Assembly: GCF_017348835.2 (NCBI RefSeq)
Contig: NZ_CP071375.1
Direction: 5' to 3' (one strand)
Length of the DNA stretch: 64,000 bases
From: Escherichia coli
GTDB taxonomy: Bacteria; Pseudomonadota; Gammaproteobacteria; Enterobacterales; Enterobacteriaceae
Numbering within the stretch: position 1 is the stretch's first letter; each line of letters begins with the position of its first letter. Below are positions 10,577 through 13,500 of the stretch, piece by piece. The position numbers were made by a program.

Positions 10577-13500
10577 TTACATGACGCGACAGGCAAACCC
10601 TTTCAGATATAGCCCTTCCGGATAGGTAGCGATCACCGGATGATCGGCCGCCTGACGGAACTGCTCTATAAATTGTACATCACGACCGGCATCAATTGCG
10701 GCATCCGCGATGATTTTCTGAAATAAATCGCTGGTCATCAGACCGGAACAGGAGAAAGTCAGGAGAATACCGCCTTCATTCAGCAACTGAATCGCCAGCA
10801 TGTTGATATCTTTATAGCCACGACACGCGCCCATCAACTGGCTTTTATTCTCAACAAACTTCGGCGGGTCCATCACGATAACGTCAAATTTTTCACCGCG
10901 ATCGCGATAAGTACGCAGCAATTTAAAGACATCATCACGGACAAACTCAGCCTTGCTCAGATCCAGTTTGTTCAGCTCAACGTTCTGCCGTGCAATATCC
11001 AGCGCTTCCTGGGAGGTATCAACGCTGACAACCTGGCTGCAACCGCCCATCAGTGCCGATACGGCGAAACCACCGGTATAGGAGAAACAGTTCAGTACGC
11101 GTTTATTTTCAACGTAGCGGCGGGTAGCCAGGCGGCTGTCTCGCTGGTCCAGGTAGTAGCCCGTTTTGTGTCCGTGCTGTATGTCCACCAGCAGCTTCAT
11201 GCCATGTTCTTCAATCGGCAGCAGGGCAGGCGGCAACTCGCCGGTGACGGGGCCCTGGGTCAGCTCCATCCCTTCTTTTTTACGTACCGCGACGTCGCTG
11301 CGATCGTAAATCGCACATTCCGGGTACAGCGTTTGCAGGGCACTAATTAATGCCGCGCGCTGATATTCTGCGCCAGCACTCAGCAGTTGCAGCACCAGAA
11401 AATTACCGAAACGATCGATAGTAATACCCGGCAGGCCATCAGATTCTCCGGCGATTAAACGATAGCTGTCGAGGCCATCTTTTTGCGCCAGCCAGTCACG
11501 CCATTTTTGTGCTTGTTGCAAACGGCGGGAAAAAAAAGCAATGTCGATAGACTCAGACGGGTCAAACGTCCAGACGCGCGCCCGGATTTGCGAAGCTGGC
11601 GAATAAGCGCCGCGTGCTAACCATTTTCCCTGATGATCAACAATATCGATGGTTTCACCGAGGCTGGCTTTACCTTCCATGCGGGCAACGGCCCCGGAAA
11701 AGACCCACGGATGGCGACGAAGTAATGATTTTTCGCGCCCTTTGGCTAACACTAAACGTACACTCATAATTTACTTTTCTGTCGATGCAAAGAAATGGGC
11801 GTCATTGTCCGGAGTTTTCCATGGATTTGCAACGCGTCCATTAAGGATAAGGAGAGCAGCAATGTCGAAAGTCTGCATAATTGCCTGGGTTTACGGGCGA
11901 GTTCAGGGCGTAGGATTTCGCTACACCACACAGTACGAAGCGAAAAGACTGGGCTTAACCGGGTACGCCAAAAATCTTGACGATGGCAGCGTGGAAGTGG
12001 TTGCCTGCGGTGAAGAAGGGCAGGTAGAAAAATTAATGCAGTGGTTAAAGAGTGGCGGCCCGCGTTCTGCGCGTGTAGAACGGGTGCTCAGCGAGCCGCA
12101 TCATCCCTCGGGGGAATTAACCGATTTTCGTATCCGTTAAATACATTTTACCGGTTTTGGCAGGCCAGCAATTTTGGTGGCTTGCTTAGCCGGACCTTTC
12201 GGAAACAGTCGGTATAAATAGCGGCTGTTACCTTTTTCTTCGCCAAATTTATTCGCCATCGCTTTTACCAGCATACGAATCGCCGGAGACGTATTAAATT
12301 CCAGGTAGAAGTCACGTACAAAACGCACCACTTCCCAGTGTTCTGGCGACAGCGAAATCCCTTCGTTCTCTGCAATCACCACTGCCAGCGGCTCACTCCA
12401 CTGGCTGCTTTCTTTGAGATAGCCTTCGGTATCCGTATCTATCTCTTTACCTTCGAAGATCAGCATAATTATTACTACCTTAATCAGACTGCCGGCAGTG
12501 TAACAAAAAACAAAGCCCCGCATAAAGCGAGGCTATGACAGTGTTAGCGGGTGAGATTAATCGCGGCTGGCGAAGCCCAGAATGCTCAGCAGGCTGACGA
12601 AGATGTTGTACAGCGAAACATACAGGCTAACCGTGGCACGAATATAGTTCGTTTCACCGCCATGAATGATGTTGCTGGTTTCAAACAAAATAGCGCCAGA
12701 GGAGATCAAAATGAAGACCGCGCTGATCACCAGATGCAGAGCAGGCAGCTGCAGGAAGATATTAGCAACCATACCAATCAGCACCACCACAATACCCGCC
12801 ATCAGCATACCGCCGAGGAACGACATATCTTTGCGGGTGGTCAGCACATATGCAGAGCAGCAGAAGAACACTAACGCCGTTCCGCCCAGTGCCATAGCGA
12901 TTACGTCACCCATTCCGGCAGACAGATAGGTGTTCAGAATTGGTCCGAGGATATAACCCAGAAAACCGGTAAAGGCGAATGCGGAGATAATCCCGGTCGG
13001 CTTATTCGCCGTTTTATAGGTCAGGAACATCAAACCATACATACCCACCAGCGTCAGAATCAGACCCGGAGATGGCAGCATCAGCACCGTACTGGCAGTT
13101 GCGGTAATCGCCGAAAAGGCCAGCGTCAGGCTCAGCAGAAAATAGGTATTACGCAGCACCTTATGGGTGCTAAGCAGTGATGTACGGTCATGTGAAGAAC
13201 TAACAATACGATCCATTGAGTCACTCTCTATGACAGATGTAATTAATTAAGCAGCATAATGATAATGCGTAAGGGCACCCAGAAGTTTTACCCATCTTTA
13301 CGCATTTGATCTGGAACAGGTTTAACAGCGGATTATCAGGTCATTAAGCAAATATAACGCCCTGAGAATTTCGACAGGCAAAAGAAAAAGGGGTTAGCAT
13401 TTAGCTAACCCCTTATCTTATTTGGCGGAAGCGCAGAGATTCGAACTCTGGAACCCTTTCGGGTCGCCGGTTTTCAAGACCGAAGAAAAACAAATAAAAA

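Follow-up and report, generated by a model that had tools for sequence, protein, structure and literature searches.

A truncated serT copy at the probable integrase-proximal junction of an Sp4/CP-933M-like prophage in Escherichia coli

The host-phage junction in serT

In the window examined here, the whole 64,000-nucleotide stretch of Escherichia coli DNA taken from contig NZ_CP071375.1, host DNA gives way to a prophage inside a tRNA gene. On the host side lie tusE and, nearer the junction, yccA (12557–13216, minus strand), the host gene downstream of serT, an open reading frame that is called yccA in the records of strains PE164 and Sakai and whose flank is identical to that of K-12. It is followed by the intrinsic terminator of host serT, a hairpin with a T-run at 13388–13414 on the minus strand, likewise identical to K-12, for which a terminator scan returned an 11-pair stem with 6 GC pairs and the tail TTTCTTTTGC. 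Next come a displaced 3' fragment of serT at 13423–13482 (minus strand) and then phage DNA, with an integrase-proximal arm of the attachment site (13483–13623), a tyrosine integrase gene (int; 13624–14643, minus strand), an excisionase-like DUF4224 gene (14621–14863, minus strand) and a gene for an 823-aa exonuclease.

The plus strand of positions 13423–13482 reads TGGCGGAAGCGCAGAGATTCGAACTCTGGAACCCTTTCGGGTCGCCGGTTTTCAAGACCG and the minus strand CGGTCTTGAAAACCGGCGACCCGAAAGGGTTCCAGAGTTCGAATCTCTGCGCTTCCGCCA; aligned with nt 29–88 of K-12 serT (b0971, NC_000913.3 1031625–1031712, tRNA-Ser UGA, 88 nt), which served as the reference, the latter matches at all 60 positions. Leftwards from 13423, the window does not differ from the empty K-12 locus over at least 130 nt, a stretch that contains the hairpin of the serT terminator, and on the yccA side the host terminator stays with the displaced 3' fragment. 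At 13482/13483 the similarity to K-12 stops at once (window AAGAAAAACA, K-12 GTGCCTTCAA), and a three-way alignment showed the window to be collinear with the empty site as far as 13482 and unrelated to it beyond. The preliminary description of this DNA had reported a tRNA-Ser similarity that runs for 60 nt from the CCA end and breaks off at 13482, had taken this for the integration site and one attachment junction, and had proposed the empty serT locus as the comparison. All of this proved exact, the K-12-identical yccA-serT DNA on one side meeting phage DNA on the other.

The fragment begins at the second base of the anticodon stem and continues through the anticodon loop, the long variable arm and the T arm to the 3' acceptor strand and CCA. 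A 21-nt segment of its anticodon arm occurs once in the whole window, with 0 copies expected by chance. The 5' 28 nt of the tRNA, which had been described as missing on this side, have no match anywhere in the 64-kb window with up to 3 mismatches allowed, and neither ARAGORN nor Rfam (gathering threshold, E ≤ 10) called a tRNA at 13300–13700. The covariance models left the fragment unflagged in this interval, the Rfam matches at E ≤ 10 that do fall there (ctRNA_p42d and GibS) being rejected as chance or terminator-like hits, with no partial tRNA among them. Of the complete cloverleaf that a functional tRNA-Ser needs, with its acceptor stem, D arm and anticodon arm, nt 29–88 alone are present here; the fragment is not a functional tRNA gene. 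The reading in which a full-length serT lies at this position, and its truncation is an artefact of alignment, has next to no probability: realignment left the 5' 28 nt absent and the tRNA searches empty, and what stands to the right of 13482 is not serT but an A/T-rich phage arm that is also found in phage Evi.

That the adjoining phage DNA is integrase-proximal, as had been stated, was borne out by its genes. The integrase (339 aa; PF00589, 4.4e-08; PHROG integrase families) ends with its stop codon 141 nt from the junction and is a homologue of Sakai ECs_1055, with the same position and length. The DUF4224 gene behind it (PF13986; PHROG excisionase family phrog_1266, 1.9e-23) corresponds to a gene annotated as 'phage excisionase' in Sakai, and the exonuclease gene is next. 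Taken with the prophage described below, we conclude with high confidence that the junction is the int-proximal attL of an Sp4/CP-933M-like lambdoid prophage inserted in serT.

A lambdoid prophage of the Sp4 type

From 13483 to 64000 the window consists of a lambdoid prophage body that is collinear with Sakai Sp4, BLAST blocks following one another in the same order from yccA to the tail fibre at 95–99.5% identity. These 50.5 kb of phage DNA are by themselves enough for the earlier estimate that the prophage exceeds 50 kb. Its gene content is lambdoid throughout, with DicF, dicB, the repressor region, replication genes, hok/sok, Q, a tRNA cluster, lysis genes and terminase, followed by the genes for head, tail, J, lom and tail fibre. 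By comparison with PE164, the prophage leaves the window inside a tail-fibre gene, 40 nt before the end of its N-terminal gene.

Several features of this body were recorded along the way. The DicF antisense sRNA lies at 18058–18109 (Rfam, 77 bits) with dicB nearby; DicF and dicB occur together in Qin-type and Sp4-type prophages. The only three tRNAs that ARAGORN called in the window form a phage cluster upstream of the lysis region at 35490–35739, namely tRNA-Met (CAT), tRNA-Arg (TCG) and tRNA-Arg (TCT), the first of which is given as tRNA-Ile (ileZ, CAT) in the RefSeq annotation of equivalent genes; an STnc100 sRNA follows the cluster at 35816–36006. Virulence-associated cargo comprises sodC, for a Cu/Zn superoxide dismutase, inserted between tail genes at 57700–58400, and a gene for a PerC-family (Pch-like) regulator at about 41200–41500. 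Three insertion sequences interrupt the prophage and probably cripple it. Two are IS3-family copies (IS629/IS1203-like) in the early region, at 19301–20611 and 28032–29342, each with an ALIL frameshift pseudoknot; they are inverted and about 7.4 kb apart, and could mediate an internal inversion. The third is represented by an IS481-family transposase gene that adjoins hok/sok (sok at 29489–29655).

The Sakai record lists 'prophage Sp4, lambda-like phage' at 1161092–1210882. The start of this feature, beside yccA (ECs_1054), precedes the CCA end of the same serT fragment by exactly 5 nt, and the feature stops just short of the repeat of 5 nt plus serT, the intact serT following at 1210888–1210975 and then hyaA. 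Sakai Sp4 corresponds to CP-933M of EDL933. The two prophages share the tusE-yccA host flank, the att boundary, the order and lengths of int, xis and exo, and the same types of cargo, with sodC and a PerC/pchA-like regulator in the window and tccP2 and espV' by projection beyond it. They differ in their IS insertions (two IS3-family and one IS481-family in the window), in the J/tail-fibre region, in one SNP in the left repeat of Sakai (C for T at -1), and in two structural respects. In Sakai a 3.5-kb internal segment is inverted, the lysis/PerC(pchA) segment corresponding to window 38206–41701, which lies next to IS629 there, and about 2.5 kb of head/tail genes present in the window at 48622–51125 are deleted. 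By this comparison, the prophage of the window appears structurally more complete than the reference Sp4.

The same succession of yccA, fragment and integrase was found in about 742 of the 5426 complete E. coli genomes in RefSeq, counted at a query coverage of at least 80%. The prophage type and its integration site have long been known, and the attL junction is not novel. Sp4/CP-933M carries tccP2 (PMC2884950), and genome surveys of STEC list serT among the prophage integration sites, sometimes with tandem prophages (PMC8767318, PMC10132054).

The attachment core and the course of integration

When the attL of the window was aligned with attB of K-12 and with the attR on the hyaA side of PE164 (NZ_CP114128.1), the nearest complete genome, an identity block of 65 bp proved common to all three. 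In the window it occupies 13418–13482 and consists of TTATT, the 5 nt downstream of the tRNA, and serT nt 29–88. The core thus extends 5 nt past the fragment as first noted, and the other junction and attP both have this extension.

Joining the two phage arms around this core gave a virtual attP with which phage genomes were searched. Phage Evi (LR597642.1) returned a single contiguous match that covers both arms and the core, in the order espV', an arm with TATACCAA repeats, terminator, a serT 3' part identical at 60 of 60 positions, int-side arm and integrase. Evi is an isolated temperate coliphage from infant faeces (PMC10910852). It resembles the prophage of the window in its uninterrupted attP, identical 60-nt serT segment, look-alike terminator, TATACCAA(G) repeats and an integrase with 97% amino acid identity, and differs in being a free phage genome of 40 kb, in an int-side arm that is about 90% identical, and in its cargo, with no tccP2 annotated. 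Because Evi carries attP in one piece, it offers direct evidence that the tRNA homology within attP itself ends at 13482/13483.

This bears on a further explanation, in which serT decayed into a pseudogene here, or a deletion that had nothing to do with a phage left the fragment as its scar, and the phage merely adjoins it. The one point in its favour, the lack of a tRNA call at the fragment, has to be set against a break that falls exactly where the tRNA segment stops in the attP of free Evi and that matches the repeat found in three genomes at the opposite end of the prophage, and against a fragment that is 100% conserved, with no sign of decay. We consider this explanation extremely improbable and retain the attachment junction.

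Behind the intact serT on the hyaA side stands a hairpin of phage origin, AAAGGGGCTACCATTTGGTAACCCCTT, that resembles the host terminator AAGGGGTTAGCATTTAGCTAACCCCTT; the 3' part of the tRNA and a terminator thus both come from the phage. The attP hairpin looks homologous to the host one at 13388–13414, having the same stem ends and a different loop and middle, which suggests that the tRNA segment of attP was once captured together with its terminator.

The arms also hold a short repeat. The 9-mer TATACCAAG lies in the int-side arm at 13586–13594, accompanied by a variant, ACACCAAG, and the same motif, written TATACCAAG or TATACCAA, has four copies in the cargo-side arm beside the intact serT (three direct, one inverted). 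The single TATACCAAG in the window, with 0.21 expected, is not significant, at least one copy appearing in 20 of 100 shuffles. All the copies of the motif are conserved in Evi despite its diverged int-side arm. Their clustering is suggestive, and together with the variant they are candidates for arm-type integrase binding sites.

These observations can be brought together in a model in which the 60-nt segment is the original 3' end of host serT, displaced when a temperate, lambda-like phage of the Sp4/CP-933M type integrated. Between the end of its cargo (espV'/tccP2) and the 3' end of int, the attP of this phage carries its own copy of serT nt 29–88, the 5 nt and the look-alike terminator. 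The tyrosine integrase would exchange strands inside the 65-bp identity, probably helped by the arm-type sites (TATACCAAG) and by host bending factors, and we infer that the anticodon stem-loop is the most likely place of the exchange. Once the phage has integrated, an intact, functional serT, in which the 5' 28 nt come from the host and the 3' part and terminator from the phage, would stand on the hyaA side (attR), and the yccA side (attL) would hold the phage arm and int beside the leftover host 3' fragment and the host terminator. Since int and the tRNA segment of attP point the same way, with the segment downstream, the truncated fragment would end up at int and the regenerated serT at the cargo end. 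The leftover fragment would be inert, except as the attL core needed for excision.

A different role for the fragment can be imagined. With int 141 nt upstream on the same strand and a strong terminator behind it, the fragment could be co-transcribed with int and form a structured 3' end of the int transcript, acting as a stabiliser, as a retroregulator like sib of lambda or as a source of tRNA-derived fragments. We regard this as very unlikely; if true, it would tie integrase expression to tRNA-like processing.

At serT itself the crossover cannot be placed, because the host and phage copies of the segment are identical and no polymorphism marks it; the block of identity reaches from the anticodon stem past the 3' end of the tRNA (nt 29–88 plus 5 nt). 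A related prophage is more informative here. PE164 carries in serU a lambdoid prophage, an effector phage of the Sp10/CP-933 type, whose integrase is 56% identical in amino acids, whose identity block has the same starting point in the tRNA (CGGTC, anticodon stem), and which likewise supplies the 3' part of its tRNA. It differs in its target and in having the tRNA convergent with int, with the intact serU adjoining int and the fragment at the cargo end, and its phage copy has two compensatory changes in the variable arm. In the extracted loci (PE164 15806–15895 for the intact gene and 34657–34719 for the fragment; K-12 1469–1558), intact serU of PE164 carries both of these phage-type changes and the displaced fragment is of the K-12 type. 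The variable-arm stem reads GTGGGG...CTCCAC in the phage and GTAGGG...CTCTAC in the host. A phage-type intact gene together with a K-12-type fragment confines the serU exchange to the 19-nt anticodon stem-loop CGGTCTCGAAAACCGGAGT, and by analogy the crossover at serT is expected within CGGTCTTGAAAACCGG.

Among known systems, lambda also has the 3' end of int abutting its att site, and differs in that its attB is intergenic (gal-bio) with a core of 15 bp, against 65 bp of a tRNA gene here. The closer parallel is the class of integration into tRNA genes, reportedly described by K. P. Williams in Nucleic Acids Research in 2002, in which the identity block extends from the anticodon stem to the 3' end. 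As in that class, the block at serT starts in the anticodon stem and reaches just past the 3' end of the tRNA, so that the tRNA would be regenerated. The difference from both lambda and this class is that the tRNA fragment here is co-oriented with int, and for this reason the truncated copy stands beside int and not the intact one.

The partner junction and exchange with the serU prophage

Within the 64-kb window there is neither a second copy of the core nor the 5' part of serT. The preliminary description had concluded that the intact tRNA and the other junction must lie beyond the right end. The first half of this stands, in that neither is in the window, and we consider a position beyond the right end most likely, indeed highly probable; 'must' is too strong, because in PE164 an inversion and in strain SJ7 tandem prophages have produced other arrangements.

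Window positions 1–25000 are 100% identical to PE164 at 3.07–3.10 Mb. The match does not continue in this way: a base-by-base comparison with PE164 as a single template for the whole window failed, and BLAST resolved the window into a mosaic of two PE164 loci. Positions 60000–64000 differ by 1 mismatch from the locus at 1.907–1.927 Mb, which is the hyaA-side end of a prophage, whereas the continuation of the 3.0-Mb locus, the yodB-side end, is 94.8% identical over 62582–64000, with no long alignment past 62067. At the hyaA-side end of PE164 the tail fibre is followed by tccP2, espV', intact serT and hyaA, and O145:H28 strain RM12761 and O157:H7 strain Sakai have the same layout, RM12761 with both junctions around one contiguous prophage. 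Projected from these genomes, the distance from the window end to intact serT is 2264 nt (PE164), 2123 nt (RM12761) or about 2.08 kb (Sakai). By homology, intact serT would thus lie approximately 2.1–2.3 kb past the end of the window, and the projection from PE164 puts the length of the prophage at about 52.8 kb.

The two PE164 loci were themselves found to be rearranged. The prophage that begins at the same junction ends in nleB2-nleC'-nleH-nleF, a serU 3' fragment and yodB, and a reciprocal hybrid at 1.88–1.93 Mb runs from mtfA through intact serU and int2 to tail fibre, tccP2, espV', intact serT and hyaA. One hybrid is bounded by two truncated fragments (serT' and serU'), the other by two intact tRNAs. 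The serT and serU prophages have about 20 kb of near-identical late genes in common, and the point of exchange lies in J, near 59–60 kb of the window. Two reciprocal hybrids argue that the oppositely oriented serT and serU prophages of PE164 recombined and thereby inverted about 1.1 Mb across the terminus region, although the arrangement could also reflect a choice made by the assembly across the long repeat (about 20 kb). Inversions of this class mediated by prophages are well known in EHEC and STEC, and our literature search for one between serT and serU found nothing relevant.

Window-PE164 mismatches were observed in patches, with 44 in the 36-kb bin (36000–37000) and 26, 6, 18 and 17 in the bins from 59 to 62 kb; in the 59-kb bin the window differs at 26 positions from each of the PE164 copies. 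This pattern suggests gene conversion between paralogous J/tail regions.

PE164 is also the source of a rival to a partner at the near serT. The junction of the window could be genuine and yet have as its partner the serU 3' fragment next to yodB, after an inversion of about 1 Mb, leaving the intact serT some 1.1 Mb away. This is what is seen in PE164, which is 100% identical to the window over 1–25000, in which the prophage from the same junction runs into nleB2-nleC'-nleH-nleF-serU'-yodB, and in which intact serT is far off at 1.88–1.93 Mb, in the serU-int2 hybrid. Against it stands the right-hand part of the window, the 1 mismatch to the hyaA-side serT end over 60000–64000 contrasting with 94.8% identity to the yodB side over 62582–64000, and we judge this rival improbable. 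Since its last 4 kb match the hyaA-side end, the window carries the un-inverted, parental combination, as Sakai and RM12761 do, with an intact serT predicted shortly after the tail-fibre and effector genes.

Strain SJ7 (NZ_CP044315.1) has a second prophage in tandem after the serT prophage. Considered at first as a simple contiguous example, it was rejected, its tail-fibre end abutting an IS3-family element and a truncated second integrase. Positions 6343–8760 of the extracted locus contain this tail-fibre end, the IS3-family element, the second, truncated integrase and an identical DUF4224 gene. Tandem serT prophages are also on record for CC119 STEC (serT_1-3).

The main value of the junction is for annotation. 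It fixes the left boundary of an effector-carrying prophage of approximately 53 kb and of the Sp4/CP-933M type, whose cargo includes sodC and the PerC-like regulator inside the window and, by projection, tccP2 and espV' beyond it; it explains the lack of a tRNA call at 13423–13482, and it predicts where the intact serT should be. Beyond annotation, serT and serU prophages, with their opposite orientations and some 20 kb of common late genes, can recombine and invert approximately 1.1 Mb around the terminus. As PE164 illustrates, the partner of a single att junction can therefore not be assumed to lie at the other end of the same prophage.
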